This document shows, piece after piece, positions 5,928 to 37,042 of a stretch of 58,278 nt of DNA. The DNA comes from a virus. Taxonomy: Duplodnaviria; Caudoviricetes. Within the stretch, counting starts at the first letter, position 1; each line of letters starts with the position of its first letter. Both the position numbers and the translations under genes were made by a program. The notes beneath the pieces were generated by a model. The model was not told the DNA's origin. It made no database searches and was given only the letters and a program-made list of their open reading frames with translations. Where the stretch lies: the IMG/VR virus record IMGVR_UViG_3300032069_000867, positions 1-58,278 of that record. The stretch is one strand, 5' to 3'.

Positions 5928-6242
5928 ATGCGAAAAAGCGATCTCTCCCCCGCCCGGCAGCGCCTGCTTGAGATCTGCCAGGAACTCGGCTTCGGCCGCA
6001 TCGAGAACCTGCGGATCGTCGGCGGCGAGCCGGCCCTCGACCCCCCGCCCCACGTCGTGCGTGATATCGCGTTCGGCAAGGAGAACGGCCCTCGCCCCGA
6101 GCGCGAGGCTGGGGACTTCATCCTCAAGATCCACGCCGTGGAGTTCTTCGCCTCCCTCGATGAGATAGGCGACGCCGTGATCGAAGTCCTGACTGTCAAG
6201 CACGGACTTCCGTTCCAGATGAGTGTTCCGGTTCCGGTCTGA
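5928..6242 (+). CDS. Small protein with two DUF2292/YezD-like repeats (candidate antiterminator)
   Basis: GGAGGT RBS; repeats 'LLEICQELGFGRIENLRIVGGEP' and 'FFASLDEIGDAVIEVLTVKHGLP'; directly precedes a structured leader. Confidence 0.7.
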   Translation: MRKSDLSPARQRLLEICQELGFGRIENLRIVGGEPALDPPPHVVRDIAFGKENGPRPEREAGDFILKIHAVEFFASLDEIGDAVIEVLTVKHGLPFQMSVPVPV

Positions 6243-6267
6243 GACCGGAGCCATATTCCGTCACCAG

Positions 6268-6347
6268 ACAACGTACTGGCCGCAGAGCGGAGGTCGTTGT
6301 GGGTGTCGCCTAAGCCGGCGAACTCGCAACGACCTCTGATCGTTTCT
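6268..6347 (+). ncRNA. Structured leader/attenuator RNA, copy 1 (before sigma gene)
   Basis: ACAACG(t)ACT-GG-CCGC-AGA-GCGG-A-GGTCGTTGT fold overlaps a ~22-bp hairpin at 6288-6338. Confidence 0.65.
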
Positions 6348-6411
6348 CGATGCTTCTCCGGAGCTGGGCGGCACCCGCCACGGGCTCCTCCTCGGCCGCG
6401 AGGAGGAAAGG

Positions 6412-7029
6412 ATGGGTTCCGATTCCAGCCGCAAGGAACTCGACGCGGAGGCATTTCAGATCATCCGGCGCAAGGCGCTGCAATTGATAGGCCGGGCCGG
6501 CGTCAGCACGGACGACAGGGAGGACATCGAAGGGGACCTGACCCTTCACGTCTTGGAGCAACTCGCCAAGTTCGACCCCACACGGGGGAGACTCGGAGCG
6601 TTCGTCACCCGCGTCGTCGAACACAAAGCCGAAGACATCCTCGATGCCCGCTGCACCGCTCGCCGCGACTACCGGCTCGACGTCTGCTCGCTCTCGGATA
6701 CCGTCCAGACCGCCAACGGCGAGGAGGTGTCCATCGAGGACATTGCCCATGAGGACGCCGTTCGCAGCCAACACAGCGTCGGCGAGTTGTCCCTCGAAGA
6801 GCAAGTCGCGCGCAAGGTTGACCTGGAGCGTCTCCTTGCCCACCTCCCCGCGGAGCAGCAAGACCTCTGCCGGCGGCTGATGAGCGCGACCGTCTCGGAA
6901 GTCGCGGCTGCCCTGGGGGTTCCGCGCACCACCCTCTATGGGCCGCTCGCCAGACTCCGGGCGATCTTCGAAGAGGCAGGTCTCCGGGAGTACCTCCAGC
7001 CGCCGTCACTTTCGCGCGAGTTCCCGTAG
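6412..7029 (+). CDS. Phage-encoded sigma70/ECF-like sigma factor
   Basis: Region 2-like 'DREDIEGDL...KFDPTRG...FVTRVV' and region 4 HTH 'LAHLP...TVSEVAAALGVPRTTLY'; strong RBS. Confidence 0.85.
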   Translation: MGSDSSRKELDAEAFQIIRRKALQLIGRAGVSTDDREDIEGDLTLHVLEQLAKFDPTRGRLGAFVTRVVEHKAEDILDARCTARRDYRLDVCSLSDTVQTANGEEVSIEDIAHEDAVRSQHSVGELSLEEQVARKVDLERLLAHLPAEQQDLCRRLMSATVSEVAAALGVPRTTLYGPLARLRAIFEEAGLREYLQPPSLSREFP

Positions 7030-7032
7030 GTA
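7003..7032 (+). promoter_or_regulatory. Candidate phage-sigma promoter A
   Basis: CCGTCACTTTCGCGCGAGTTCCCGTAGGTA; 26/30 identical to 16321-16350. Confidence 0.6.
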
Positions 7033-7073
7033 TGAAGTGGGCAAGGTTGAGCCACCCCAGGATGGAGAGACCG

Positions 7074-7382
7074 ATGACACCGGAGATCTACCGCTTTCGC
7101 TTCGAGCCCGGCGCGTGCATGAAGGAGGTGCACGAGTCGCTCTTGCTCTCCATCTTCGCGGCCGAGGGCCTTCACGGCCGCTCCTGTATCCGCCTGGATG
7201 TTTCCTTCTGCGCCGACGACGACAAGCGCGCCCTCGTGGTGGACGCCCGCACGGAAGCGGGTCACACGGTGGCCCGTATCTTCACCAACTTCCTCATCCG
7301 ACAGTTCGGCGAGGAAGCTTTCCGCATCGAGCGCGTCGGACGCCAGCGCGAGGACGCCCTGGTGGCGGAGGCTCGAAGATGA
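7074..7382 (+). CDS. Hypothetical protein
   Basis: ATG after GGAG; overlaps next gene (ATGA). Confidence 0.7.
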   Translation: MTPEIYRFRFEPGACMKEVHESLLLSIFAAEGLHGRSCIRLDVSFCADDDKRALVVDARTEAGHTVARIFTNFLIRQFGEEAFRIERVGRQREDALVAEARR

Positions 7383-8314
7383 CGCCTCGCATGACCACCA
7401 CCTATTCCATGTGGAGCCTGTTTCGGAACTGCCGGAAGGCCTGCTACTGGCGCTATATCCGGGAACTTGCCCCGATCAGGCGTGACCCGCGCCTGGGCTT
7501 CGGCACGCTGATCCACGAGTGCCTGGAGCTATGGCACCGCGACCGCGACCTCGCAGCGGTGCTGGAGCACGTCGCCCAGAGGCTGCCGGCCCGAGTCCAG
7601 GATGATGAGCGGCAACGAGACTGGCAACTGGCCAGGGCCATGATGGCCGGCTACGCGAATCGCTACCCGGCCGAGGAGTTCGAGGTTCTCGCCCTTGAGC
7701 ACACCTTCGAAGGCGAGATCATCAACCCGGCCACCAGGGCGCGCTCTCGCAGCTTCGTGCTGGCTGGCAAGGTGGATGGCCTGGTGCGCATCGGGGACGA
7801 GCACTACGTGCTGGAGCACAAGACCGCCTCCAGCCTCGACGCCGATTACCTTGAGCGCCTGTGGACTGACTTCCAGATCACCCTCTACGCCTATTACCTG
7901 GAGCAGGCGCTCAGTGTCCGCATCAACGGCGTGCTCTACAACGTGTTGGTGAAGGCGCGGCTGAAGCAGCGCCGCACGGAGAGCGAGGCCGAGTTCGCGG
8001 AGCGCCTGGCGGCCAAGTATGCTCAGCCGGCCATGTTTCACCGGGAGATGCTCTACCTCTCCCGAGACCAGTTCACCGTGCTGCGCGCCGAGTTGTGGGA
8101 GCTGACCCAGGCCTTCCTCGACGCCAGGCGACGCAACACCTGGTACCAGAACACCGCCTTCTGCTTTCACCACTACCGGCCGTGTGCCTACTTCGCGCTC
8201 TGCCGCTCCGGCGGCAGCCCCAACGTGATTGACAACTTCTACCAGCGCGTTCCCCCGCACGAAGAGCTGCGGGAACAGCAGGGGCCTTCCATGAGCGAGG
8301 CTCCTGCATTTTGA
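7379..8314 (+). CDS. PD-(D/E)XK RecB/Cas4-like exonuclease
   Basis: FGTLIHECLE, GKVDGL...LEHKT, Q...Y, one N-terminal and three C-terminal Cys (CFHHYRPCAYFALC). Confidence 0.9.
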   Translation: MTPRMTTTYSMWSLFRNCRKACYWRYIRELAPIRRDPRLGFGTLIHECLELWHRDRDLAAVLEHVAQRLPARVQDDERQRDWQLARAMMAGYANRYPAEEFEVLALEHTFEGEIINPATRARSRSFVLAGKVDGLVRIGDEHYVLEHKTASSLDADYLERLWTDFQITLYAYYLEQALSVRINGVLYNVLVKARLKQRRTESEAEFAERLAAKYAQPAMFHREMLYLSRDQFTVLRAELWELTQAFLDARRRNTWYQNTAFCFHHYRPCAYFALCRSGGSPNVIDNFYQRVPPHEELREQQGPSMSEAPAF

Positions 8315-8330
8315 CGAGAGGAGAACCGAC

Positions 8331-9176
8331 ATGCTTCCAACTGAAAAAACGCCGCCCAAACAAGACCTTGCCGACCTGACCCTGTTGATTTACGGGTCGA
8401 GCAAGATCGGGAAGTCGACCTGGTGCTCGCAGGCCGAGGGAGCGGTCTTCCTGGCGACCGAAGCGGGCCTGAACAACCTGGAGGTTTTCCAGGTGCCGAT
8501 CACCAGGTGGGAAGAGTTTCTGCTGGCCTGCCGCGAGATCGCCGAGGGCAAGCACCCGTTCAGGACGGTGGTCATCGACACCGTGGACAACGCCTACCGG
8601 ATGTGCGCCGATTACATCTGCGCCAAGTTCAAGATCGACCACGAGAGCGACCTGGGATTTGGCAAGGGCTACGCCCTGATCAACAACGAGTTTCACCGCG
8701 TCATCACGAAGGTCTCGCTGCTGCCCTACGGTCTCTTCCTGGTCTCCCACTCCCAGGAGCGGGAGATCGAGACTCGCACCGGCAAGCACACCCGGATCGT
8801 CCCCACCCTTCCCGACAAGGTGCGCAAGGTCGTGCTGGGGATGGTGGACCTGATTCTCTACTGCGACCTTGAGATGACCGCAGGCCCCGATGGCAGCGTG
8901 GCGGGTCGGCGGGTGATGCGCACCAAGCCGCACGTCAACTACGAGGCCGGCGACCGCACGGGACGCTTGCCCGAAGTGATCGATCTGGACTTCGGCAAGT
9001 TCCTCGAGGCGTTCAACCGGGGCGCACCCGCTCAGGCTCAGGCACAACAGCCAGTCGGTCGAGCGCCGAGCGCAGAGCGGCCCGACAAAGCCCCTACTCC
9101 GTCCCAACCAGCCGCGGACAGCTCGCGGCCGAAAGCCCGCCCCGGCGGGCAAACAACCCACTCACAAGGAGAGTGA
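8331..9176 (+). CDS. AAA_24 / Sak4-like ATPase
   Basis: Walker A YGSSKIGKST, Walker B TVVIDT; sits between nuclease and DUF669. Confidence 0.85.
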   Translation: MLPTEKTPPKQDLADLTLLIYGSSKIGKSTWCSQAEGAVFLATEAGLNNLEVFQVPITRWEEFLLACREIAEGKHPFRTVVIDTVDNAYRMCADYICAKFKIDHESDLGFGKGYALINNEFHRVITKVSLLPYGLFLVSHSQEREIETRTGKHTRIVPTLPDKVRKVVLGMVDLILYCDLEMTAGPDGSVAGRRVMRTKPHVNYEAGDRTGRLPEVIDLDFGKFLEAFNRGAPAQAQAQQPVGRAPSAERPDKAPTPSQPAADSSRPKARPGGQTTHSQGE

Positions 9177-9179
9177 AAG

Positions 9180-9665
9180 ATGAGCACCCATGAACCCGGC
9201 ACCGCAACCCATGACCCCGACATCGACCTGGCGCAGTTCGACGACGACTTCGCCGAGGCGCCGATCGAGGAGCGCGACTTCGAGCCGGTGCCCGATGGCA
9301 AGTACCAGGTCGTCGTCGAGAAGGTCGAACTCACCCGCGCCCAGAGCTCGGGCAACCCCATGCTCAAATGGACGCTACGGGTGCTCGGTCCCCAGCACAA
9401 GGGCCGGCTGCTCTGGCGCAACAGCGTGATGGCCAGCCGCGAGAACCTCAAGTGGTTGAAGACCGACCTGCACACCTGCGGGCTGGACCTCCCGCGCCTC
9501 TCCGAACTGCCGGCCAACCTGGAGAGGCTGTTGGACGTCCGCCTCGAGATCACCAAGCGCACGAAGGATGAGAGCGAGAACGTCTACTTCAACCGGCGCA
9601 TCGTGACCGAGGACGAGGGCCAGGGATACGACGCAACCGCTCAGGACGCTCTGAACCCATTCTGA
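9180..9665 (+). CDS. DUF669 (SSB-like) protein
   Basis: FEPVPDGKY.V...SSGNPMLK motif, acidic tail ending in PF. Confidence 0.85.
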   Translation: MSTHEPGTATHDPDIDLAQFDDDFAEAPIEERDFEPVPDGKYQVVVEKVELTRAQSSGNPMLKWTLRVLGPQHKGRLLWRNSVMASRENLKWLKTDLHTCGLDLPRLSELPANLERLLDVRLEITKRTKDESENVYFNRRIVTEDEGQGYDATAQDALNPF

Positions 9666-9666
9666 C

Positions 9667-10113
9667 ATGCCAGCCGTGATAGTGGTGGACACCCGTGAGA
9701 TCGAGCCTTACTCCTTCGACCCCGAGCGCGTGGCGGTGGTGCGCCGCGCGCTCCCCGCCGGAGACTACTCCCTCGAAGGGCTTGAGGATCGAGTCGCGGT
9801 GGAGCGCAAGACGCTGGATGATCTCGTTACCACCGTGATCCGAAGCAGAGACCGATTCCGCCGCGAGTTGCTCCGGCTGAGGAAGTGCGAGGCGGCCTGC
9901 ATCGTGGTCGAAGCCGACTTTGCCGACCTCCTCGCGGGTCGCTACCGCGCCGGCGTTCATCCGAACGCAGTGCTCGGGGCGGTGGTCTCCATCGTGATCG
10001 ATCACGGCGTTCCGGTGTTTTTCTGTTCAGAGCGGCAAGTCGCCCGTCTGTTCACCGAGTGCTACCTGCTGCGATTCTACCGAAAGGTTCAGGCTGCATG
10101 CGAAGTGCCTTGA
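9667..10113 (+). CDS. ERCC4-domain nuclease
   Basis: VDTRE, L..GDYS, VERKT..DL motifs. Confidence 0.92.
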   Translation: MPAVIVVDTREIEPYSFDPERVAVVRRALPAGDYSLEGLEDRVAVERKTLDDLVTTVIRSRDRFRRELLRLRKCEAACIVVEADFADLLAGRYRAGVHPNAVLGAVVSIVIDHGVPVFFCSERQVARLFTECYLLRFYRKVQAACEVP

Positions 10114-15200: not shown

Positions 15201-15307
15201 ACCAGGACACGTCCCGCAAGACGTCCCGCACACGTCCCGCGGCTAGCCTTGACGAACCCATCGATCTGGCCCAGATACCAGATTGCGAGGAGGACGATCT
15301 GCAATGA
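12296..15307 (+). CDS. AEP primase fused to helicase and C-terminal winged helix
   Basis: WLCLDFD, ERSGGGHGWHLW (AEP); PGSGKGLL, ILLDNI, TANN (P-loop helicase). Confidence 0.9.
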   Translation: MSESRAVPPSEKAVGLLRRYFLCRTDTVAFLAPWERPSPARADGQLDELLLAHLKGSKAPKVTVHYRNSRGEGVVKGNFRIGAYAPAPDGTTRWLCLDFDGGDHAEALADPTATALAVYRIFESVGTRPYLERSGGGHGWHLWCFFEPPVSARKARAMAKVLLPEEVTLANGERALPQTGRGIEVFPKQPKIERNGFGNLVWLPWWSEADGAANQFHRPDEKGELVPFVPEEFETADESRVDAVIAQANTSGKYQPRASPQSAKAQEATDEAWREWREKALAALSLEAIYGQWLTGKTCADGWLQCRDPWSPTGDRDPSAGVADGSGQAERGEFHSFISGKSLSVFDFLVERGEVADFRAACARVAQMSDVPLPATARDSPRHVSPHGRPTIQVNNRQLRDVVADVWRAVHAANRPPTLFVRSGALVRLQHADDGCRIEATDEAAIYGFLARSADWVKVTDTGVTSVSPVRDVARDMLAYPDEQVPQLEAVVCAPVFDRQGKLISEPGYHPAARLWYHRLSGFSIEAVHERPTPEQAGAARDLLLDDLLVDFPFASEADRAHAVAALFLPFVRRIVDGCTPIHLIEAHTPGSGKGLLADVVALIALGRCCEPTTVTPDEEEARKKITSLLARAQPVILLDNIRTGIESAQLAAALTAEVWSDRILGQTRMIDLPNRATWLVTANNPRLSLEIARRCARIRLDPRTDRPWQRTAFKHAPLREWIRANRARLVHALLVLVQAWNAAGKPQGQRVLGSFEGWSRVVGGILGNAGIDHFLGNTEELYETADAEGNEWREFVAAWWDAYHDNWVSAKDLLKLALERDLLGGTIGDKSARSQQTRLGRALATVRDRQFGEWRIVIRRDAHSKSAGYRLLLAETRGTSCGTCGTSCGTSDPHVPQQEASPGAESLPFAEHCGTSGLPSPHAREDLYDGDNASPRAGRTPEEVPQRPANASEGLPGPSETKFDAGHDQDTSRKTSRTRPAASLDEPIDLAQIPDCEEDDLQ
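14928..15240. repeat. GCGGGAC iteron-like cluster, candidate replication origin
   Basis: Six forward copies (14928, 14940, 14949, 14961, 15036, 15191) and six reverse copies (14981, 15128, 15138, 15211, 15223, 15234). Confidence 0.75.
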
Positions 15308-16355: not shown

Positions 16356-16664
16356 TGGAGAGCCATGACAGCGGCGAGCACACACAACCTGGCGAGCCCG
16401 AGAGGCATGGAGGCCGTGTTTGCGGGCATTTCACGGCCCAAGAGTCGCCATATCCGCCTGCTTGCGAGAATACCTGCGAACATGCCTCGACATTCGCCAA
16501 CTCAGGCCTTGATTACTTCGCCCTTCCGAGGAAACATTCACCCAACGGCTGTGAGCGCCGCTCCAGCCGAAATCAGGGCCGGAAGGGCCTCGGGCAACTC
16601 ACAACAGGCGCTCGTCGCAGGAACGCTCGCGGCCTGCCCTCCGGCAGAACGAGGAGGTAGTGCT

Positions 16665-21492: not shown

Positions 21493-21505
21493 TGGGCGGC
21501 GACCC

Positions 21506-21537: not shown

Positions 21538-21551
21538 CACGAGGGAGCATC

Positions 21552-27570: not shown

Positions 27571-27607
27571 TGGCGCAAAATGACGCGCCCAGGGGGATGA
27601 TGAGCTG

Positions 27608-28177
27608 ATGCCGCGAGGGACGCCGGAAGAACGAGAGGCGATTGCGCGCCGGCAGGAGCGGGTCTGGCACTTGCGCGTGGTGCGCAAACTGACCGAACAC
27701 GAGGTCAGCCAGCTCATGAGCATCTCGCGGCGCACCATCACCCGCGACCTGGCGGCGATGCGAGCGCGAGGGCAGTCCGCGGTAGCCCTCTCGGCGGCTT
27801 CAGAGAAAGCGGTGGTGGACGCGGGTCTGCAGGCGGTCTCGGAGTTGGATGCCATCGTGCGGCAGGCCTGGACGGACTGCATGGCCGCTCCCGACGGATC
27901 GCTGGCGCGGGTGGGCTATCTCAACCTCGTTCTCAAATCCATCGGGGAACGGCTGCGCATCCTGCAGTCCCTTGGACTGATGAAGAAGGTTCCGGAGGAG
28001 GTGTTGCTTGGTGACCTCGATTTGCGACAACTCAGCGACAGCGAGGCCGAATCTGCCCTTACCTTCCTCCGCGCGTGTGCGAGAGGCGCTGGAGGCCCGG
28101 CTGGCGGCCCTGCTCGAGGAGCGGCGGAATCCCAGGCCGTGGATCGAAGCGAACCTGTGGATTCGCACGAAGGATAG
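27608..28177 (+). CDS. Putative terminase small subunit (HTH)
   Basis: N-terminal HTH (EVSQLMSISRRTITRDL); directly upstream of terL. Confidence 0.7.
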   Translation: MPRGTPEEREAIARRQERVWHLRVVRKLTEHEVSQLMSISRRTITRDLAAMRARGQSAVALSAASEKAVVDAGLQAVSELDAIVRQAWTDCMAAPDGSLARVGYLNLVLKSIGERLRILQSLGLMKKVPEEVLLGDLDLRQLSDSEAESALTFLRACARGAGGPAGGPARGAAESQAVDRSEPVDSHEG

Positions 28178-29633
28178 GCGAGTGATTCCGTTCCTGCTCA
28201 ACGCGGCCCAGGTAGATTACTGGGATCACCGTACGCTTCGGGACATGATTCTGAAGCCGCGGCAACTCGGCTTCACGACGCTGATCTGCGGCCTGTTCTT
28301 CGCGGACACTTTGCTGCGACTGAATACGACTTCGGTGATCGTGGCGCACGATACCGATTCCAGCGAGAAGATCTTCCGCATCGTGCAGTTGTTCTGGGAG
28401 CGGCTGCCAGAGGAGGAGCGACGGCGGGTGGGGCCGCCGCGTTTCTCCAACCGCCGAGAGTTCCTGTGGCCGAAGATCAACAGCCAGTTCTACGTGGGCA
28501 CCGCCGGCAGCCTGACCTTCGGACGGGGACAGACCATCAACAACCTGCACTGCTCGGAGTTCGCCTTCTGGCCGAAGCCTGAAGAAGCCCTGACTGCGCT
28601 GACGGAAGCGGTGCCCACCGGTGGCCGAATCGTCATCGAGTCCACCGCGAATGGGATGGGCAACTTCTTTCACAGCCTTTGGACCGAGGCCAAAAGCGGC
28701 GGCAATGACTTTGCGACAGCGTTCTATGTCTGGTGGGAAGACCCGGCCTATCGGATCGCGGGCGAGCCACTGACCGACCTCAGCCAGGAGGAGACGCGGC
28801 TCAAGCGCGCGTGGAGCCTTGACGACGATCAGATTCGTTGGCGGCGCGATAAGCAGCGGCAGCTTCGAGACCGCTTCAAGGCCGAATACCCTGAGGATGA
28901 TGTGACTTGCTTCCTCGCCAGCGGGCGCTGCTGCTTTGATATCAGCGCGCTTGTCGCTGCGCAGGCGCGCATCGCCGCCGAGCCCGCGCCGGTTGTGCTT
29001 GCTTCGCTCAAGGGCACCAGGAGCAGCGACCTCAGCGTCGCTCCTGCGCGTTTGTCGATCTGGAAAAGGCCGGAGGCGGGTCGGCAGTATGTCGTCGGCG
29101 CGGACGTGGGCGAAGGGCTGGCGGGTGGCGATGCATCATCTGCCTGTGTGCTTGACCGGGAGAGTGGGGAGCAGGTCGCCGAACTCCACGGGCGCATCCC
29201 GCCGGATCGTTTTGGCCACCTGCTGGATGCCCTGGGCCGCTTCTACAACCTGGCGACGGTGGCGGTGGAGCGCAATAACCACGGTCACTCCACGCTCAAC
29301 ACGCTGCGGAATGTCTGCCGCTACCCGCGGCTCTACTACCACGTGCGCTACGACCAGACGGGCAAAGGGAAGCCCATGCTCGGCTGGCCGACCGACCAGG
29401 CCACCAAGCCGATCCTGGTGGATGACCTGGCGGCGGCGATCGCGGGCGGGCACCTGCTGATCCATTCGCCCGACCTGGTGGACGAGTGCTTGACCTTTGT
29501 AACCACGGATACCGGCTCTCAGGAGGCGCAGGAGGGCAAGTTCGATGACCGGGTGATGGCGGCCGGCATCGCCTGGCAGGCGCGCAAGCGGGGCGTGTCG
29601 CGCGGCACGACACAACGGCCGGCGGGGTGGTAG
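28077..29633 (+). CDS. terL: Terminase large subunit (start uncertain, 28008-28077)
   Basis: LKPRQLGFTT, LHCSEFAFW, ESTANG, GADVGEG, VERNNHG, DDRVMA. Confidence 0.93.
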   Translation: MREALEARLAALLEERRNPRPWIEANLWIRTKDRRVIPFLLNAAQVDYWDHRTLRDMILKPRQLGFTTLICGLFFADTLLRLNTTSVIVAHDTDSSEKIFRIVQLFWERLPEEERRRVGPPRFSNRREFLWPKINSQFYVGTAGSLTFGRGQTINNLHCSEFAFWPKPEEALTALTEAVPTGGRIVIESTANGMGNFFHSLWTEAKSGGNDFATAFYVWWEDPAYRIAGEPLTDLSQEETRLKRAWSLDDDQIRWRRDKQRQLRDRFKAEYPEDDVTCFLASGRCCFDISALVAAQARIAAEPAPVVLASLKGTRSSDLSVAPARLSIWKRPEAGRQYVVGADVGEGLAGGDASSACVLDRESGEQVAELHGRIPPDRFGHLLDALGRFYNLATVAVERNNHGHSTLNTLRNVCRYPRLYYHVRYDQTGKGKPMLGWPTDQATKPILVDDLAAAIAGGHLLIHSPDLVDECLTFVTTDTGSQEAQEGKFDDRVMAAGIAWQARKRGVSRGTTQRPAGW

Positions 29634-29643
29634 GGAAGAGGCA

Positions 29644-29904
29644 ATGCAAACGTTGAAAGCACCAGCCACGAGTCTCAAGTCTCTGGGAGAGGCCCTCCTC
29701 CAGATCAGCGACGAGTTGCCGGTGAAACTGCCCGCGGGTTGTGAGTTGCGCGTCGTCTCCGCCGCCCAGGCGGCGCTGCTCGACTTCTTCGCCGAGAATC
29801 CCTACTGCACCATCGAGGAACTCGACGTGCACGCGGGCGACCCAGACCTGGTGCGGCTGCGGTTGTCGGAGGCGGCGGTAAAGAAGATCAAGCTCGTCAG
29901 GTGA
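29644..29904 (+). CDS. Small DUF2292/YezD-like protein (candidate late antiterminator)
   Basis: LLDFFAENPYCTIEELDVHAGDP...KKIKL matches the repeat pattern of 5928-6242. Confidence 0.65.
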   Translation: MQTLKAPATSLKSLGEALLQISDELPVKLPAGCELRVVSAAQAALLDFFAENPYCTIEELDVHAGDPDLVRLRLSEAAVKKIKLVR

Positions 29905-29966
29905 CGGCAATCACGCGGGCCTGCATACCTGGCTCCCAATTCCCTGCCCGCCCTGATACGGCCATC

Positions 29967-30015
29967 TTGACCATTGTTTCGGTATATGGTATAGTTTCAC
30001 CGCAACGGTGAAACT
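29967..30015 (+). promoter_or_regulatory. Promoter and palindromic operator of the AbiE cassette
   Basis: TTGACC-17-TATAGT with TGn extension; perfect AGTTTCACCG-caa-CGGTGAAACT at 29993-30015. Confidence 0.85.
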
Positions 30016-30083
30016 GGCGACTTGGCGAAACACCTCGGTGGTTCGCCAGGGCGGCTATGTTTACCGTCAGGTTGGAGCAAACC

Positions 30084-31184
30084 ATGCCAGCGATCAAAGA
30101 GAGAGATCTGACAGCACAGACCGCCCAGCGCCTTCGGCAGGTGCTGGAGGAAGTGCCATTCGTGGATGTGCTGCGGATCGAGCAGCAGGTACCCATCGCG
30201 CCCGGCCGCGTGTCCGACCTGGTGGTGGAGATTCAGACGCCCGTCGGAGCGCGCCGGCTCCTGGTGGAGGTGAAGACAGAGGGTCTTCCGAGGACCCTGC
30301 GTGACGCCGGAGAGCAGCTCAAGGCTTATGTCACGAGTCTGCCAGATGCCTACGGGGTGGTGGCTGCTCCCTACATAAGCGACCGGGGCCGGGCTCTCTG
30401 CCAGCAGCTCGGGGTCGGCTGTCTCGATCTCGCTGGGAATGTTCTGCTCGCCTTTGACCAAGTGTTCATTGAGAAGACCGGATACCCCAATCCCTCGCCC
30501 GTGCGGAAACTTCGGAGGGCGCTGTTCTCACCGCGGTCCACGCGGGTCTTGCGTGTCCTGCTCGCCGACCCTGCGCGGCGGTGGTACGTCCGCGACCTGG
30601 CGGCCGAAGCGCGGATCAGTCTTGCGCAGACCTCCAACTTGAAGCGGGTGCTGCTCGAACAAGACCTGCTGGGCGAAGAGCGCCGCCGCTTCTGGCTGGC
30701 GAAACCTGACGACCTCCTTCGCGATTGGGCGCAGGCCTACACCTACGAAGTGAACGACGTGCGGTCTCTGTACTCGATGCTCCGCATTCCAGAGGTGGAG
30801 GAGCGCCTTGCCGCGGAGTGTGAACGGAGAGGCATGCGCTACGGCTTGGCCCTGTTCTCGGGTGCAAGCCGGGTTGCCCCTTTCGCTCGCTATGACCGCG
30901 CCTTTGCATTCGTTGATGAGAGACCTGACGAGATTGCAGCGGCATTGGAGTTGAAGGCGGTCCCCACGGGGGCCAACGTGATCCTGCTCCGCCCCTACGA
31001 TGAGGGCGTCTTCTACGCGCTCCAGGACGTCGGGGGAGCGAAGGTCGTGTCGGACATCCAACTTTACCTCGACTTGAGGAGCTACAAGGGCCGTGGCGAA
31101 GAGGCCGCAGACTTCCTCTACGAAAGGCGCATCAAGCCGCGATGGAACCCAGAACCCGATCAGACTACACAGCCAGAGCAGTAG
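30084..31184 (+). CDS. Type IV TA antitoxin, AbiEi-like
   Basis: N-terminal D...EVK segment, central wHTH, C-terminal VSDIQLYLDL...GRGEEAA. Confidence 0.85.
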   Translation: MPAIKERDLTAQTAQRLRQVLEEVPFVDVLRIEQQVPIAPGRVSDLVVEIQTPVGARRLLVEVKTEGLPRTLRDAGEQLKAYVTSLPDAYGVVAAPYISDRGRALCQQLGVGCLDLAGNVLLAFDQVFIEKTGYPNPSPVRKLRRALFSPRSTRVLRVLLADPARRWYVRDLAAEARISLAQTSNLKRVLLEQDLLGEERRRFWLAKPDDLLRDWAQAYTYEVNDVRSLYSMLRIPEVEERLAAECERRGMRYGLALFSGASRVAPFARYDRAFAFVDERPDEIAAALELKAVPTGANVILLRPYDEGVFYALQDVGGAKVVSDIQLYLDLRSYKGRGEEAADFLYERRIKPRWNPEPDQTTQPEQ

Positions 31185-31999
31185 ACGCCGCCTTTTCGGT
31201 GCTCATCGAGTTGTTCGGCATGCTCGGCGAGTTCCGCGAACACATCGCGGTCATCGGCGGCTGGGTGCCGCACCTGATCCTCCGCGATGCAGACACAGAG
31301 CCAGCGGGCACCTTGGACGTGGATCTGGCCATAGACTTTGCGCACATCTCGGACGATACCTACAGCACGTTCCTCAAGGCGCTTGAGACGCGCGGCTACC
31401 GACAAGACCACGAGCAGCCCTTCCGATTCTTCAAGGCGGTCACCATCGGAGATGGCCCGCCGGTCGAGGTCGAAGTTGATCTCCTGGCCGGAGAGTACGG
31501 GGGGACCGGGAAGGGCCGCCGCACGCAGGTCGTCCAGGATGTCCGAGCCCGCAAAGCACGTGGGGCTGACTTGGTCTTCGACCACTGCGTCCAGGTTCGC
31601 GTCGAGGGACGGCTGCCGAACGGTGCGCTTGACACGGTGACCGTGAAGGTCGCAGACGTGGTGGCCTTCCTCGTGATGAAGGGAATGGCTCTTCATGACC
31701 GGCGCAAGGAGAAGGATTGCTACGACATCTTCTACTGCGTCGCCAACTACCCAGGAGGTGTTGCTGCCTTGGTAGAGGCCTTCCGGCCTCATATCGACAA
31801 GCGGCTGGTGGCTGAAGGCTTGTCGAAGATACGGAGCAAGTTCCTCTCACCTGAGCATTTCGGGCCGGTCGCGGTCGCTGAGTTTCTTGAGATCGCCGAT
31901 CCGGAGGAGCGTGCCATCGTGACTCGCGATGCCTATGAGCGCCTGAATGCGCTCCTGGAGCAACTGCAAGTCAGGCTCTGGGAGGATTCCCCGGCGTAA
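31142..31999 (+). CDS. AbiEii-like nucleotidyltransferase toxin
   Basis: VIGGW...TLDVDL; MKGMAL.DR..EKD.YDI. Confidence 0.85.
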   Translation: MEPRTRSDYTARAVDAAFSVLIELFGMLGEFREHIAVIGGWVPHLILRDADTEPAGTLDVDLAIDFAHISDDTYSTFLKALETRGYRQDHEQPFRFFKAVTIGDGPPVEVEVDLLAGEYGGTGKGRRTQVVQDVRARKARGADLVFDHCVQVRVEGRLPNGALDTVTVKVADVVAFLVMKGMALHDRRKEKDCYDIFYCVANYPGGVAALVEAFRPHIDKRLVAEGLSKIRSKFLSPEHFGPVAVAEFLEIADPEERAIVTRDAYERLNALLEQLQVRLWEDSPA

Positions 32000-32000
32000 C

Positions 32001-32732
32001 ATGATCAGATTTGGGATCAGGCAATCATTTAACACCCTCGACCAGTTTGCCGCACGCTATCGCGAGCGTCGGATTCCTCTCGAGCTGGCGCTGCCTTACA
32101 GGATGACGGACTACGAACTGATCCGCCCTCACCTCACTGAACTCGCCGACTTGCTCGTGCAGTGGCAGACGCCGATCCTCAGCCTTCATGCTCCACAGGG
32201 CAGGCTCGCCGAGCCAGGTTTCCGGATCTGGGCGGAGGAGGTGGGGCGGTTCGCTGCTGCACTGCGAGTCCGTGAGATCACCCTCCACCCCAGCCGGTTT
32301 CAGAAGGATCGGCCCGTGCATGAACTCCAGCACACGGTATTGCGCATCTGCCAAGAGATTGAAGCAGCATATTCGGTGATCTTTTGCCTGGAAACCTTCA
32401 CGGGAGGCAAGCGACTCTTCAGTATCGACGACATCATGCGATTCGAACGTCCGATGACGCTGGATGTTGCCCACCTTCATGACACGGAAGTGGTGTGGCG
32501 GATCGTGCATCAGTACCATCCGCATATCTCCACCGTCCATCTCTCCGGCAAGGGCGGCGACAGAACGCATCACCTGCCCATCGATGACGAGTGCTTGCAG
32601 GTTGTGGAAGCCTTGGTCAGGTATGGCTGGCAGGGAAATGTCATCCTCGAATATCTTCCCGACTATCATGATCGCCTGGAGGAGGACTTTCAGTTGCTGC
32701 AACAGAGATTCTGTGGCACAACCACTGCTTGA
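32001..32732 (+). CDS. AP-endonuclease-2 / xylose-isomerase-like TIM-barrel protein
   Basis: SLHAP, TLHP, CLET, TLDVAH, VHLS, HLP, ILEY metal-ligand pattern; starts 1 nt after the toxin stop. Confidence 0.85.
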   Translation: MIRFGIRQSFNTLDQFAARYRERRIPLELALPYRMTDYELIRPHLTELADLLVQWQTPILSLHAPQGRLAEPGFRIWAEEVGRFAAALRVREITLHPSRFQKDRPVHELQHTVLRICQEIEAAYSVIFCLETFTGGKRLFSIDDIMRFERPMTLDVAHLHDTEVVWRIVHQYHPHISTVHLSGKGGDRTHHLPIDDECLQVVEALVRYGWQGNVILEYLPDYHDRLEEDFQLLQQRFCGTTTA

Positions 32733-32757
32733 CGCTGGGAGGCTCCGGGCATAGAAT
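32729..32757 (+). promoter_or_regulatory. Sigma70 promoter for the portal operon
   Basis: TTGACG-17-TAGAAT. Confidence 0.8.
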
Positions 32758-32763
32758 GCTGAC

Positions 32764-32843
32764 AATCGAATAGACGCTCGGCGACCGGATAACCGGAGGC
32801 GAGCCGCAGGTTCCCTGACAGGACCTCGGCTCGCTTTTGCTTT
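32764..32843 (+). ncRNA. Leader attenuator RNA, copy 2 (before portal)
   Basis: GAATAG-N9-GA-CCGG-ATAA-CCGG-AGGCG overlapping terminator hairpin 32797-32836 with TTTTGCTTT. Confidence 0.75.
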
Positions 32844-32865
32844 CCCAGCGGAAAGGAGATATGTA

Positions 32866-34368
32866 GTGGCACTTGACCTGAGCACTTACCCGCCCAAGGG
32901 GCACCAGGAGCGCATCGCCACTTACCAGCGGTATGAGCGGCTGTTCCTGGGGCAGCACAAGCTGGTCTTTGCGGTGGTGCCGCAGCCCTACCAGATGAAG
33001 CGCTATATCGTGGCCAACTTCGCCGGGCTGATCTCGCGGCTTTCCGCTGACCTGCTTTTCGGGGAGCAGCCAGACTTCCTTTCGGCTTCGCTCAAGGCAG
33101 GCCTGGCAACACAGGAGGATGAGAAGGCGCAGGAAGCGCTGGCCCAGGTCGTCAGTCGCAATAACCTGCACGCCGTCAACTACGAATCGGCTCTGTCCAA
33201 CTCGTTTCGCGGGGACGCAGTCTACAAGGTTCGCTGGGGCAAGCGGACTCCGACGGCGGAGGCACCAGAGTCTATCATCGAGGAGGTGCCTGCCAGCATC
33301 TACTTCCCAGAACTGGATGACGATGATGTGCGGCGCGTGCTGCGGGTGACGCTGGCCTGGGTGAAGCGTGATCCGAAGGATACCAAGCGTGCCTACCTGC
33401 GGGCCGAGGTGCACGAGCCAGGTGTCATCCGGCATCAACTGTTTGACCTGGGCAGCGTCTCCACTCTGTCCGTCGCTGGAGGCCAGGCCGCGACGATCAC
33501 GATTGGCGGTAAGGCGCTCCAGCAGATTCCTCTGAAGACCCTCGAGGCCTACCAGGACTTGCCAGAGGAGGAACAGACCGGTCTGGATCACGTCCCGATC
33601 TTCCACGTGCCCAACTTCCGCTATGGCTCCCGTTTCTGGGGGATCAGCGACTACGAGGGGCTGGAGTCGCTCTTCGAGTCCCTGAACAACCGCGTCTCCC
33701 AGATCGACGAGGTGCTGGACAAGCACGTGGCTCCGAAGATCGTGGTGCCGCCCGGCTTCGTGGACGAAGATGGGAAGATTCGCTTCGACCACATGGAGAC
33801 CATCGAGCTGGGGCCGGGCGATCAGCCGCCCTCCTACATCACCTGGGACGCCCACCTGACCGCGGCCTTCACGCAGTTCGAGAAACTCCTTGATCTGCTG
33901 TTCATGCTCTCCGAGACCGCGCCGTCGGCTTTCGGGCTGGACAAGTTCGGAGTCGCCGAAAGCGGCCGGGCGCTGCGGCTTCGCCTGCTGCGCACGCTGG
34001 CGAAGATCAACCGGAAGCGGCTCTACTACGATACCGCGCTGAAGGCGGCGCTGCTCACCGCCCAGGTTCTCGACGTGACCCACGGCTCTGGCGAATACGA
34101 ACCTGCCGAGCCAACCATCCAGTGGGCGGACGGGCTGCCGGAGGACATGGTCGAGATGGTGGAGATCGAGAGCCAGCGGCTGGCGGCAGGCAACACGTCG
34201 GTTGAATCCTCGGTGCGTCGGCTGGACGGCCCAGACGCCGTGGAGGCCGAGATGGCGCGGATCGGGGAGGAGACGGGACAGGCAACTACTCTCACCGGGG
34301 CGGCTGGCGGTAAGGGGCAGGAAGCCCGCACTGAGGACCAGCCGGAGGCCGGGGCAGAGGGCGCCTGA
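32866..34368 (+). CDS. Portal protein (SPP1 gp6-like)
   Basis: VANFAGLI...ADLLFGE, HVPN...WGISDY, ESGRAL; position after terminase. Confidence 0.92.
   Translation: MALDLSTYPPKGHQERIATYQRYERLFLGQHKLVFAVVPQPYQMKRYIVANFAGLISRLSADLLFGEQPDFLSASLKAGLATQEDEKAQEALAQVVSRNNLHAVNYESALSNSFRGDAVYKVRWGKRTPTAEAPESIIEEVPASIYFPELDDDDVRRVLRVTLAWVKRDPKDTKRAYLRAEVHEPGVIRHQLFDLGSVSTLSVAGGQAATITIGGKALQQIPLKTLEAYQDLPEEEQTGLDHVPIFHVPNFRYGSRFWGISDYEGLESLFESLNNRVSQIDEVLDKHVAPKIVVPPGFVDEDGKIRFDHMETIELGPGDQPPSYITWDAHLTAAFTQFEKLLDLLFMLSETAPSAFGLDKFGVAESGRALRLRLLRTLAKINRKRLYYDTALKAALLTAQVLDVTHGSGEYEPAEPTIQWADGLPEDMVEMVEIESQRLAAGNTSVESSVRRLDGPDAVEAEMARIGEETGQATTLTGAAGGKGQEARTEDQPEAGAEGA
33078..33102 (+). repeat. Possible REP-like insertion in portal
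   Basis: CCTTTCGGCTTCGCTCAAGGCAGGC, hairpin-like; reads LSASLKAG in frame; single copy in the window. Confidence 0.45.
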
Positions 34369-34413
34369 GGTGCCCATGCGGTGGATCTGTGTCATCCGAC
34401 ATGTTGCGCCTGC

Positions 34414-34466
34414 AGTCTGGTTTCCGCCTTCGCCGAGGCTACGGCGGACAAGTCGGGGCTGTGGAC
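34414..34466 (+). repeat. REP-like hairpin plus flanks, duplicate of 25514-25567
   Basis: AGTCTGGTTTCCGCCTTCGCCGAGGCTACGGCGGACAAGTCGGGGCTGTGGAC. Confidence 0.8.
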
Positions 34467-34501
34467 ATGGTCTCAGCACCTGTCGTGAGGAGCGTTGAGG
34501 C

Positions 34502-36568
34502 GTGCCTCCACCCATCGGGCGTCGACGCATTGAGGAATTCCGGCGGGCATTCACCGGCGAGATTGACTCGCTGGCTGCCCTCTACCGCGACGCGGCCGCA
34601 GACATGATGGACGTTCTCGCGGACGCGGCGACGCTCGCTGGACAGCGGGGCCGGGCGGTCGCCCTGCTGCGGCAGTACCAGACCATCCTCGCCGACCTGG
34701 GCGATGAGGCTGCGGCGTGGATAGAGTTTAACATCCCGCGCGCTTACGATATCGGGCTGGAGTTCGGCGACGAGGGGATTCGCAACATCCGCCGTGCCGG
34801 AATCAACCTGCGACGTCGAGGCACGACGATAACGGGTCGCAGGGAGCGGGAGGTGTTCTCCCAGGTGCACCGGGAAGCGGCGCGGGCAATCACGGAGTCC
34901 ATGCTGCAGACCACCAATGCGGCGCTTGCTCAGATTGGCCGCCGCGTGGATGATGTCTTCCGCCGCGAAGGAATGCTGGCTGTCGCCAGGGGGATCGCAG
35001 CAGGCCGCGCCCGAGTCGAGGTGAGTCGGGAACTGGAGCAGCGGCTGATTGCTGCGGGCAGGCCGACGTTCGTGGATGCGCTGGGGCGGCAATGGCCCCT
35101 CGACCGCTATGCCGAGATGGTAGCCCGCACCACCACCCGCGAGGCCATGACCCAGGGCACCATCAACCGGCTGCGCGAGCACAGCGTCACCCTCGCTCAA
35201 GTATCGGCGCACAATGCGGAAGACTTCTGCCGCTACTACGAAAACGCCATTGTCTCCCTGGACGGCTCGCACCCTGTCTACCCGCCGATCTCGGCGATCA
35301 ACGGCCCCCCGCCCTGGCATCCGAACTGTATCCACGTGCTCACGCCCTTCGTGGAGCGCCTAGCGACTGACGAGGAGAAGAAACGGGGCATCATCTCGCC
35401 CGACCTGCTCAACAAGCCTCCGGCCGAACTCCAGCGGCGCTTCCGCAAGGAGTTTCCTGGCGTGGCCCGGGCCGCGGGAAAGCGAGGGCTTGCACGGGCG
35501 GGGCGGGCAAGGGTTGCCGCGGCGCGAGGGCGGCCCAAGCCCACACGGGCGCATGCCCCCGAGCCTGAGCTGCGCGCCCTGGAGGAGGGGACTGTCCTGC
35601 GCCGCACCTACAAGGGCCGCGAGTACCTCGTCCAGGTGGTGGAGGGAGGCAAGGTCTACTTCGAGGGCGGCGTCTATCACTCGCTGACCGATGTCGCCCG
35701 GATCATCACTGGGCAGAGGGCAATCAGCGGGCCGGCTTTCTTCGGCGTGGCGGAGCGCGGCAAGCGCACCGGGCAGGCCGTGGCCGCCGCGCGGCCCGTC
35801 GCTGCTCCGCCCAAGCTGCCGAAGCCGAAGACAGACCTGGAACTGACGGGGCGCACTTGCGATGACTTGGCTGAGATGATGGGCGCGAAGCATGGATGGA
35901 ATGGAGACTTGCGCACCGGTCGAGGCGCCTTCGGCGGGCACAAGGACTGGGACTGCGCCATCAGCATCGGCTCGGAGGCAAGGGATCGCGTGGATGCGAT
36001 GCTGAAGCACGATGCAGCTTCCTGGGCAAAGCTTTCCCGGAACCAGAAGATGGAAATGACCTCTTCCTTCAACACCCTGGTGCATGAGGCGACTCATGCT
36101 ATGGGGGTGGAGGGGGCAATCAAGACCCACGAGTACGCGACGGCGGCGCAGCGGTGGATAGAGGAAGGCCTTACCGCCGCGGGGGCCGACGAGACGGCGC
36201 CGAAGCTCTTCGAGCGGATCATGGGGTTCCCCTCCGGCCTGGACAAGCGCGACTTTGCCGGGATGGCAAGCTACAGCGATTACCAGCAGGCCCTGGCGAA
36301 GGCGCTCGGCGGGCCTTATGCCGGGCGCTCGATGTCTGAGCCAATGCGGGGGATTGACCCGAAGCTCTACCTGGACTTGGCCTACCGCACGCCTCGCGAC
36401 CAGCGGCTCTGGGAGCTATCGAAGCGCATGGAGAGCTACTACGGACGAACAGAGCGCGGCGTGAGAACGGCGGTGGAGATAGAAGCCATCGTAGGGCACT
36501 CGGCAGACCACAAAGTGGTGGTGAATTTCGCCGAAGAGGCCCTGGCACTACAGCAAGCGAGGCCGTAA
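34502..36568 (+). CDS. MuF-type minor capsid protein fused to a DUF2924-like domain and an HExxH metallopeptidase
   Basis: DALGRQW.LDRYAEMVART and PPWHPNCIH (minor capsid); GTVLRRTYKG...YHSLTDVARIITG...GPAFFG; LVHEATH...IEEG. Confidence 0.85.
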   Translation: MPPPIGRRRIEEFRRAFTGEIDSLAALYRDAAADMMDVLADAATLAGQRGRAVALLRQYQTILADLGDEAAAWIEFNIPRAYDIGLEFGDEGIRNIRRAGINLRRRGTTITGRREREVFSQVHREAARAITESMLQTTNAALAQIGRRVDDVFRREGMLAVARGIAAGRARVEVSRELEQRLIAAGRPTFVDALGRQWPLDRYAEMVARTTTREAMTQGTINRLREHSVTLAQVSAHNAEDFCRYYENAIVSLDGSHPVYPPISAINGPPPWHPNCIHVLTPFVERLATDEEKKRGIISPDLLNKPPAELQRRFRKEFPGVARAAGKRGLARAGRARVAAARGRPKPTRAHAPEPELRALEEGTVLRRTYKGREYLVQVVEGGKVYFEGGVYHSLTDVARIITGQRAISGPAFFGVAERGKRTGQAVAAARPVAAPPKLPKPKTDLELTGRTCDDLAEMMGAKHGWNGDLRTGRGAFGGHKDWDCAISIGSEARDRVDAMLKHDAASWAKLSRNQKMEMTSSFNTLVHEATHAMGVEGAIKTHEYATAAQRWIEEGLTAAGADETAPKLFERIMGFPSGLDKRDFAGMASYSDYQQALAKALGGPYAGRSMSEPMRGIDPKLYLDLAYRTPRDQRLWELSKRMESYYGRTERGVRTAVEIEAIVGHSADHKVVVNFAEEALALQQARP

Positions 36569-36570
36569 GC

Positions 36571-36798
36571 ATGTCCGATTTCATCGACGAACTACTGCGT
36601 GGAAGGAGGAAAGGGCACCGCATCCGGCCCGGCTTCATGGAAGAGGCGAGCGCCGCGATTATGCGGGCCGCTGGCACGCCGGAGGCCCGGCGGACCCTCC
36701 AGCGCTATCTCCGACGAGCCCGAGGCGGCCTGGAGCGCGCCCAGCTCATGCGCATGGAGGAGATGCTTGTCATGGCGGAGGGCGCCGGCGAGGATTGA
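36571..36798 (+). CDS. Small hypothetical protein (candidate immunity partner)
   Basis: 75 aa, starts 2 nt after the MuF stop; next promoter lies downstream. Confidence 0.6.
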   Translation: MSDFIDELLRGRRKGHRIRPGFMEEASAAIMRAAGTPEARRTLQRYLRRARGGLERAQLMRMEEMLVMAEGAGED

Positions 36799-36890
36799 CA
36801 AGCCCCCTCGGATCAGGTCAGGGGCGGACAGCAAGGCGCTGGCACGCAGCAGACCACCCCGCCCGGGACACAGGCCGCGGGAAGAGGGTA

Positions 36891-36918
36891 TTGACACCTG
36901 GCCCGGGTGCGATAGAAT
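36891..36918 (+). promoter_or_regulatory. Sigma70 promoter for scaffold/capsid/tail operon
   Basis: TTGACA-16-TAGAAT. Confidence 0.8.
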
Positions 36919-36924
36919 AGGGTG

Positions 36925-37027
36925 AACTGAATAGCATACCGCCGACTCGATAACGAGAGGCGGGCTTTCTGAGAGCTGTGCCTGGTAGCCCCAGGCGGCT
37001 CAGAGAAAGCCCGCCTCTTTGCTTTTT
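36925..37027 (+). ncRNA. Leader attenuator RNA, copy 3 (before head genes)
   Basis: GAATAG-N9-GA-CTCG-ATAA-CGAG-AGGCG; perfect 15-bp stem 36956-70/37004-18 followed by TTGCTTTTT. Confidence 0.78.
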
Positions 37028-37042
37028 CAGGAGATGCTGGAG

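Follow-up and report, generated by a model that had tools for sequence, protein, structure and literature searches.

The stretch of DNA analysed here (the window) is IMG/VR provirus record IMGVR_UViG_3300032069_000867, 58,278 bases in length with all long open reading frames (ORFs) on the plus strand, and it belongs to a temperate siphophage. We examined two small proteins of this phage, sp104 and sp86, together with three RNA leaders downstream of them, for which a first-pass annotation made from the sequence alone had proposed a two-tier antitermination system. The three small hairpins on which that proposal was built are present at 6268-6300 (copy 1), 32776-32804 and 36939-36963. The genes behind them are, as claimed, an extracytoplasmic function (ECF)-like sigma factor gene, an SPP1-type portal gene and the scaffold, capsid and tail genes, and folding confirmed that in all three leaders a far stronger hairpin uses the 3' strand of the small hairpin as its own 5' arm. 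The elements are arranged as follows.

5928-6242, plus strand: sp104, an ORF of 104 amino acids without a known family, first gene of the early unit
6259-6407, plus strand: early structured RNA, about 150 nt long, in the gap that separates sp104 from the sigma gene
6268-6300, plus strand: P0/P1 hairpin (copy 1), with outer helix P0 at 6268-6273/6295-6300; P1 comprises a 3-bp helix (6275-6277/6292-6294), a GG/A internal loop, a 4-bp helix (6280-6283/6287-6290) and an AGA loop
6288-6338, plus strand: P2 long hairpin with a U-poor tail to 6350, starting inside the P1 3' strand; -38.0 kcal/mol
6301-6308 pairing with 6369-6376, plus strand: P3 long-range helix
6385-6406, plus strand: hairpin enclosing the ribosome-binding site (RBS) of the sigma gene shortly ahead of its start codon, loop GGCCGC, predicted from folding and from alignment A8 (below)
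6412-7029, plus strand: divergent ECF-type sigma factor gene
29644-29904, plus strand: sp86, an ORF of 86 amino acids without a known family, directly 3' of the large terminase gene (TerL) and last gene of the long early/middle unit
29967-32732, plus strand: cassette with its own promoter (29967-29995), encoding AbiEi-like, nucleotidyltransferase and AP_endonuc_2-like proteins
32729-32757, plus strand: late promoter 1, TTGACG-17-TAGAAT
32764-32845, plus strand: late leader 1, with a GAATAG box (32768-32773), the hairpin 32776-32804, a terminator from 32794 and a U-tract (32834-32843)
32866-34368, plus strand: SPP1-type portal gene, followed by the minor capsid protein gene
36891-36918, plus strand: late promoter 2, TTGACA-16-TAGAAT
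36925-37029, plus strand: late leader 2, with a GAATAG box (36929-36934), the hairpin 36939-36963, a terminator (36955-37018) and a U-tract to 37029
from 37043, plus strand: scaffold, major capsid, tail and lysis genes

Both late promoter-plus-leader stretches (32729-32845 and 36891-37029) begin with a near-consensus sigma70-like promoter, after which come a conserved box, sitting as GAATAG ten bases past the -10 element, and a small hairpin that a strong terminator overlaps. The two hairpins fit GA-NNNN-ATAA-NNNN-AGG, in which the stems differ yet remain complementary (CCGG vs CUCG/CGAG) around an identical loop. The pattern GANNNNATAANNNNAGG was matched twice in the window with 0.05 matches expected, and TAGAAT-N10-GAATAG twice with 0.00 expected; the two late copies thus exceed chance, and they are clearly paralogous. 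The folding free energies of the leader stretches were -47.9 (copy 1), -39.9 (late leader 1) and -57.3 kcal/mol (late leader 2), with z-scores of -4.8, -3.5 and -5.8, respectively. Both late leaders qualify as intrinsic terminators, the U-tracts CTTTTGCTTT (32834-32843) and CTCTTTGCTTTTTC (37016-37029) following hairpins of -30 and -51 kcal/mol.

The same leaders recur in related phages. A portal protein query retrieved 24 related loci with 70-97% identity, giving 25 sources together with the window, and a covariance model (R1) built from 14 late leader sequences produced 37 matches at E<=0.002 in 24 of these sources, all on the gene strand, with the next best match at E=0.37 and none in L143. 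Two matches were found in each of the 13 sources spanning both leader positions and one in each of 11 shorter loci; in the window, late leader 1 scored 42.9 bits (E=4.6e-9) and late leader 2 38.7 bits (E=6.4e-8). Every match shares one layout, running from a sigma70-like promoter through an AAC(C/T)GAATAG-type box, a lower stem, an internal loop of G(A/G)/A type, an upper stem of 3-5 bp and its loop into a terminator whose 5' arm is the 3' strand of the lower stem. The promoter-to-box distance is variable, and some late leaders carry an extra hairpin in between. A first, broad DNA-pattern scan of viral contigs had given mostly chance matches, and filtering its 120 stored loci for stem complementarity left one related contig.

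The overlapping terminator was found in all 31 late leaders that were folded, at -25 to -51 kcal/mol as against -11 to -19 for the small hairpin. Computed 10-nt tails of these terminators hold 0-8 U, the computation sometimes drawing U's into the stem, and the U-tracts were also read by eye. In a model-fitted alignment of 28 late hairpins, 95.2% of cells were paired compared with 83.7% in shuffles, and 25 cells with changes on both sides were counted where 6.6 were expected, a number that none of 500 shuffles reached. At one lower-stem pair, U.G occurs in 14 of the 28 sequences, and the frequency of such pairs argues that the late element acts as RNA rather than DNA.

Conservation of the late hairpin as a whole goes along with variation at its tip, in that the upper stem and loop are identical in both leaders of one phage and different between phages, with 8 types counted. 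A small ORF of 69-86 amino acids was present in 16 of the 16 TerL-to-leader intervals examined; it is sp86 in two of them (the window and L133), and in the other 14 it belongs to another family with the motif W..L..A..E..GGFGEL...F.DG.P. Searches with tblastn found sp86 only in L121, L123 and L133, which are the three loci with an ATAA hairpin. Comparison of the window with L124 is most informative, given that TerL, portal and minor capsid protein are 94%, 94% and 93% identical between the two, whereas the small ORF and both hairpins are completely different, the second hairpin lying about 4 kb away behind conserved genes. Tip and small ORF thus switch jointly while flanking genes stay 93-97% identical. 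Between L131 and L122, the lower stem and terminator of leader 2 are common and the tip alone differs, with small ORFs 38% identical. Other neighbours do not track the hairpin type, the ORF after leader 2 being 68% identical in a phage of the same type and 78% in a phage of a different type. The first-pass annotation had placed specificity in the loop (AGA early, ATAA late), which proved too narrow, because loops vary freely among relatives and it is the G(G/A)/A internal loop that is invariant.

In the window, the cassette at 29967-32732 separates sp86 from late leader 1, and it is outside the switch. That its removal would bring sp86 next to late leader 1, as had been supposed, is borne out by L133, where the cassette is missing, some 120 nt separate sp86 from the late promoter, and the spacer (674-740) keeps the first ~26 bases of the cassette leader; for the same reason the cassette is taken as an insertion. 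The cassette itself brings an extended -10 promoter and a leader with strong structure (29967-30056, z = -4.8), and the bases left in L133 mark the interval between small ORF and late promoter as a recurrent insertion site. The earlier description of the insert as an AbiE cassette is retained only in part, since one AbiEi_2 Pfam match was obtained but the nucleotidyltransferase match was sub-threshold and PADLOC returned no AbiE match in the window.

The early copy was found to be part of a larger element. Alignment A8, consisting of 67 sequences of the gap between sp104 and the sigma gene from viral loci, revealed that this gap is better conserved than the proteins themselves, and RNAalifold recovered three helices from it, namely P0, P1, whose GG/A internal loop is practically invariant, and P3. 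In the window, the hairpin reads ACAACG / ACU-GG-CCGC-AGA-GCGG-A-GGU / CGUUGU. Across A8, 97.5% of cells were paired compared with 89.2% in shuffles and 28-53% in slid controls; 12 of 17 pairs showed changes on both sides (5.4 expected), amounting to 119 double-change cells (42.5 expected), and 0 of 500 shuffles reached the observed value on any of five measures. Compensatory changes occurred at 5 of 7 P1 pairs and 2 of 3 P0 pairs, with 98% of P0/P1 cells paired. In P3 (A8 columns 106-114 with 209-224), 93-99% of cells were paired, one pair being UA in 35 and CG in 29 sequences and another AU in 25, CG in 18 and UA in 11; G.U was counted at two early pairs in 17/67 and 11/67 sequences. Replication on 74 distinct genome sequences gave 1138 of 1191 cells paired at the same columns with the same compensations. 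Conservation and compensatory change in relatives, which the first-pass annotation had left to be checked, are therefore present in both the late hairpins and the early element. Its description of copy 1 was right in that the hairpin is real and incomplete in that it had not seen the rest of the ~150-nt RNA, with its long-range helix and RBS hairpin.

A hidden Markov model (HMM) built from 63 relatives, leaving out the window and its three nearest relatives, matched window 6259-6407 with E=3.2e-24, and an HMM from the viral set located the element behind sp104 homologues at 77 of the 80 loci from bacterial genomes, missing L238, the truncated L255 and L307. By contrast, the early HMM had no match to the late leaders at E<=10, and R1 did not match the early elements with filters off. 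The idea of one fold in three leaders thus holds for the shared architecture but not for sequence, copy 1 having no detectable homology to the late leaders, and a single covariance model spanning the three copies was not supported. Of 23 longer records with an early cassette, R1 matched a single one, that of the near relative G003, indicating that the late leader as modelled is confined to the close kin of the window. Copy 1 lacks both a promoter and a GAATAG-type box. Upstream of sp104 homologues, a sigma70-like promoter with as many as 9 of 12 matches was seen in only 1 of 75 sequences, and the window has none there. Scanning with Rfam 15 (cmscan) gave no match in the window either at gathering score or at E<=1, and none at the element in four relatives scanned at E<=1; together the scans yielded only three unrelated weak matches elsewhere. 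As for other explanations of the RNA, a kink-turn was rejected for the internal loop because its 3' strand is AG rather than GA, which makes tandem sheared G.A pairs impossible, and attenuation by ribosome position in the manner of a leader peptide was judged unlikely with the sp104 stop codon at least 27 nt upstream of P0.

An equivalent of P2 was found in 67 of 67 relatives with a mean of -36.3 kcal/mol. Because it begins inside the P1 3' strand and holds the P3 5' strand, P2 and the P0/P1/P3 fold are mutually exclusive. The formal covariation count backs the P0/P1/P3 fold, and the case for P2 comes from per-sequence folding and from compensatory arm differences read by eye. In the window, the 10 nt after P2 contain 5 U, interrupted. 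The loop of the RBS hairpin, GGCC(R)C (A8 columns ~233-256), resembles the 5' half of P1 and matches the P1 variable base in 45 of 59 motif-bearing sequences; it may represent either a second protein site or mere shared ancestry. The early element may accordingly control translation besides termination, or instead of it in some phages. In most relatives, a G/C-rich hairpin (GGGG.T.GGC.CCCC) stands directly 3' of the sp104 stop (A8 columns 15-33, e.g. L152 1819-1840); neither the window nor the relatives nearest to it have this hairpin.

Relatives of sp104 were collected from 117 viral contigs (80 kept) and 171 places in species-representative genomes (80 kept), the latter mostly from Planctomycetota and also from Acidobacteriota, Myxococcota, Desulfobacterota, Chloroflexota, Verrucomicrobia and others. 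Zavarzinella formosa DSM 19928 carries an sp104 homologue, although the RNA HMM found no element there. The family comprises 1,823 representatives of 50%-identity clusters at E<=1e-3, with no Pfam domain in those representatives listed with annotation, and tblastn with sp104 found no match in 50,697 phage records or 72,556 plasmid records. The order sp104 homologue, element and sigma gene was kept in 80 of 80 viral loci, with sigma factors 26-89% identical and a gap of 154-281 nt. The sigma gene product of the window matched Sigma70_r2 (E=3.4e-5, 24.0 bits, equal to the cut-off of 24), TIGR02937 over residues 17-184 (E=1.6e-9, 37.6 bits, below the cut-off of 42.9) and phrog_1740 (E=1.5e-12). 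One variant of the early element recurs in 12 loci of the L212-L228 group, L212 and 11 duplicates having identical first 120 nt 3' of the sp104 homologue; several contig names there carry identifiers in the style of isolate genomes, and one prophage lineage therefore appears widespread. One metatranscriptome run (0.06 of sampled words) contained short scattered contigs of relatives with 88-99% likeness, from which starts, ends and termination are unreadable.

Neither sp104 nor sp86 matched Pfam, PHROG or NCBIfam. An AlphaFold2 model of sp104 based on the family alignment (pLDDT 92.9, pTM 0.85) is a tandem duplication of a helix plus beta-hairpin module (H8-20/E23-31/E34-36/E42-45 and H68-80/E83-91/E94-99), while a model of a late-family member contains a single helix plus beta-hairpin with a disordered tail (pLDDT 77.9). 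By hhalign, the late family was aligned with the sp104 family at its N-terminal module (probability 81%, E=1.2e-5), and the sp104 family with the C-terminal half of sp86 exactly on the motif that had been noticed at first (probability 48%, E=1.9e-4). Support for that motif is modest, since BLASTP of sp104 against sp86 gave E=12, but the profile comparison and the models suggest that early and late proteins form one distantly related module family. A likeness to DUF2292 (PF10055), also proposed, was not upheld, with no match at E<=10 for sp104, sp86 and seven late-family proteins and a single sub-threshold match (E=0.019) among 26 sp104-family members. Fold searches were empty for the late-family model (Foldseek against PDB) and the sp104 model (Foldseek against PDB and BFVD); VIA-align of the sp104 model over 48,161 chains gave a best Z of 2.9, sequence profiles against PDB gave nothing meaningful, and the ESM Atlas returned only unnamed clusters.

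Taken together, these observations point to sp104 as a candidate early RNA-binding factor and to sp86 as a candidate late factor for ATAA-type hairpins, and such protein and hairpin pairs probably time the switch-on of the sigma factor and the late genes. Fixed hairpin architecture, conserved overlap with the stronger hairpin, strict synteny and the concerted switching of protein with both tips are hard to explain other than by a specific protein-hairpin interaction, and the geometry of overlap makes antitermination the most economical output. From these features we infer binding, the direction of its effect and the logic of timing. In this model, one switch design would have been built twice, each tier consisting of a small module protein (a fused module pair in sp104, probably a dimer or a two-module protein in the late tier) and an RNA in which a helix, a G(G/A)/A internal loop, a helix of about 4 bp and a small loop compete with a stable hairpin for the 3' strand. 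By default the stable hairpin would form, as a strong intrinsic terminator in the late leaders and a terminator-like structure in the early element. Once the cognate protein has accumulated, it would clamp the small hairpin on the nascent RNA so that the stable hairpin cannot nucleate and polymerase reads on. In the early tier, sp104, as first gene of the induced early unit, would license transcription into the sigma gene and the ~23-kb unit behind it, with P3 then locking the read-through fold; the sigma gene through sp86 reads as a single long unit, because no gap or leader precedes the terminase genes. In the late tier, sp86 would open two constitutive sigma70-type promoters that otherwise give short terminated RNAs, turning on the portal/head operon and the capsid/tail/lysis operon. 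We rate two-tier, protein-dependent antitermination through stabilisation of the small hairpin as somewhat better than an even chance on the sequence evidence, and either passive or processive action would fit the data.

Antitermination of this geometry has precedents. BglG, SacY and LicT acting on RAT, HutP and the ANTAR proteins are passive antiterminators, in which a protein stabilises a small imperfect hairpin whose 3' strand the terminator needs. The same mutually exclusive geometry is present here, the overlap being seen in the three window leaders, in all 31 late leaders folded and in each of 67 early elements. However, no CAT, PRD, ANTAR or HutP domain was found in the window by Pfam (57 proteins at E<=0.01, the small proteins at E<=10), the fold is unmatched, one protein would serve two leaders, and the switch belongs to a cascade of phage development, not to the sensing of sugars or nutrients. 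In lambda, N acts at nut sites composed of boxA and boxB, and phage-specific N-boxB pairs exist in lambda, P22 and phi21. The present system resembles it in having a small phage protein and a two-part RNA site (a single-stranded box and a hairpin), in the co-variation of hairpin specificity with protein between phages, and in that the first gene of the early unit would act on that same unit. It differs from N/nut in the absence of any identified arginine-rich motif, in the acidic to neutral character of its proteins (pI 5.3; medians 6.1-6.8), in the direct overlap of hairpin and terminator and in a box unrelated to boxA. The gene for lambda Q lies at the end of the preceding unit, before the constitutive PR' and tR', and Q binds DNA and paused polymerase. 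Likewise, sp86 ends the preceding unit upstream of a constitutive sigma70-type late promoter and terminator, whereas covariation of RNA type with G.U pairs, two late promoters and the absence of a Q-family domain from every window protein set the two apart. With the protein hallmarks of the BglG, N and Q families missing here, protein-controlled attenuation in this phage would be of a known kind with new parts.

Two further systems were compared. In conAn of pLS20, RNA encoded by conAn2 within a 383-bp intergenic region antiterminates alone and processively, and the upstream-encoded ConAn1 (172 amino acids) adds processivity, as described in PMC8191782. Both systems place a structured RNA immediately behind a protein gene where a very long operon starts, and they differ in that the RNA here is about 150 nt with a built-in competing hairpin; the plasmid records in which sp104 was unmatched were not confirmed to include pLS20, and ConAn1 itself was not compared. 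GafYZ of the Caulobacter gene transfer agent exerts two-tier control of a phage-like cluster and includes an antiterminator, GafZ being reported to use a DNA element between -35 and -10 and to form a complex with Nus factors; an RNA hairpin switch is not described for GafYZ in the sections available (PMC11150451). In the literature searched, supplements aside, there was no account of the protein family, of these RNAs or of a cassette of protein, RNA and sigma factor; DUF2292 appears in two papers, apparently only in passing.

Several findings weigh against the proposed mechanism. The co-variation of small ORF and hairpin could conceivably come from hitch-hiking with some other gene that the short contigs do not cover. 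In A8, inner P2 pairs are out of register in the MAFFT columns (22-44 of 67 paired), and at least 5 U in the 10 nt after P2 were found in only 29 of 67 sequences, at least 4 in 49 and none in a few. The late pair counts stem from a model-fitted alignment, in which two of five measures were not above shuffles (42/500 and 389/500). Profile comparison of the late family with sp86 found no similarity, nor did single sequences, so that the equivalence of sp86 to the late family rests on position and a transitive match. No likeness to a known RNA-binding fold was found, and the proteins are not basic, with median pI of 6.1, 6.8 and 6.3 in the three families and 5.3 for both window proteins. Finally, a host target that is itself conserved, such as RNA polymerase, would account equally well for the conservation of the early-RNA sequence across phyla. 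The first-pass reading is thus upheld in its conserved cis-hairpins, their overlap and the coupling to protein, but is strained by acidic or neutral proteins and an early hairpin that is often U-poor.

Some of these points favour other explanations. If the RNAs are genuine attenuators or antiterminators that, like put or conAn2, work alone or together with host factors, the small proteins would act instead on polymerase or the phage sigma factor as a processivity factor, sigma partner or anti-sigma. Proteins that are not basic, an early RNA conserved across phyla and the constant adjacency of sp104 to the sigma gene (80 of 80 viral loci) would all suit this explanation, and the conAn gene order is the same as that seen here, with an RNA that antiterminates by itself (PMC8191782). 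We nevertheless regard it as unlikely, given that phage-specific tips switch together with the small ORF while polymerase and host are unchanged, and that the terminator overlap, which a purely processive mechanism would not need, is kept in every case. Alternatively, the proteins may bind the hairpins with autorepression, control of sigma translation through P3 and the RBS hairpin, or RNA processing or stability as the output. The frequent U-poverty of the early long hairpin suggests that the early switch may act partly on translation or RNA fate; in addition, the sigma RBS lies inside a conserved hairpin whose loop tracks the P1 variable base (45/59), and P3 can form only once the terminator position has been transcribed. 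However, the late leaders are canonical strong terminators right after sigma70-like promoters with no comparable translational element, hairpin and terminator overlap in the classic antiterminator geometry, and 49 of 67 early elements still have at least 4 U in the next 10 nt, making an output other than antitermination improbable.

The least credible of these explanations, to which we give only a very slight chance, is that the hairpins are palindromic DNA operators for dimeric DNA-binders loading onto polymerase near the promoter, in the style of Q or AlpA. Many late elements are indeed located just 3' of a promoter, the proteins appear as dimer-like modules, and Q binds DNA near promoters. 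The same is reported for GafZ (PMC11150451). By contrast, the frequent G.U pairs (14/28 late, 17/67 and 11/67 early) would be A.C mismatches on the other strand and the late copies in the window have unlike stems around the same loop, both of which make a DNA operator unlikely; moreover, the promoter-to-hairpin distance varies with extra hairpins inserted, and there is no promoter near the early element.

On a wider reading, sp104, sp86 and the small ORFs behind TerL in related phages could constitute a large undescribed superfamily of small, sequence-specific RNA-hairpin binders with a fold unlike any solved, forming with their cognate switches a third phage developmental antitermination system beside N and Q. 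It would be modular enough to serve twice in one phage, as an early licence for the ECF-like sigma factor and as the late switch, and be re-programmable by exchanging tip and protein. The early cassette would then rank with the more widespread of the regulatory modules still uncharacterised in prophages, occurring in Planctomycetota, Acidobacteriota, Myxococcota, Desulfobacterota and further phyla. We hold this wider proposal to be a serious possibility that falls a little short of even. If the switch is real, the few known transcription antitermination systems would gain a protein fold and two RNA motifs, all of them new, and the order of early, middle and late expression in a large group of uncultivated temperate phages would be explained. 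Naturally orthogonal protein-hairpin pairs would also become available, with at least 8 late hairpin types each found with its own small-ORF variant, and such pairs could be used as compact switches in synthetic biology; the proteins concerned have 75-104 amino acids and the RNAs are short. The joining of an RNA switch to a phage sigma factor in the early cassette is an arrangement that we did not find described in the literature or Rfam 15.

The remaining genes of the window, which with those above give the map of a temperate siphophage, are the following.

655-2244, plus strand: serine integrase
2902-3531, plus strand: LexA-like S24 repressor
between the sigma gene and the terminase genes, plus strand: recombination, replication and methylase genes
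27608-29633, plus strand: small and large terminase

The repressor gene has a near-consensus promoter (TTGACC-17-TATACT, region 2819-2901), immediately 3' of which a 10-bp GC-rich hairpin (2853-2877) is followed by the U-tract TTTTCTCTTC, with the ATG at 2902. This hairpin looks like a terminator within the repressor leader and may be an attenuator of the repressor gene. Upstream of sp104, two direct repeats of CAGCTTTTCGCC lie 22 nt apart at 5818-5852, with similar repeats in L147 (1900-1945), and the gene just 5' of them (4704-5735) has a weak OmpR/PhoB-type winged-helix match, so that the CAGCTTTTCGCC repeats may be activator sites for the early promoter. Among the related loci, some tblastn matches were split by 0.9-1.4 kb of unmatched DNA, in the minor capsid protein of L121 (7432-8543) and L144 (1598-2520) and in the large terminase of L130 (2230-3647), and these splits may represent insertions, for instance of inteins or homing endonucleases. 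A DUF2924 domain lies inside the minor capsid protein 2 homologue of the window (34502-36568), at residues 327-416. At the right end (56306-58278), past the lysis region, lie an amidoligase_2 gene and, behind it, a glutamine amidotransferase-like gene that runs off the window.

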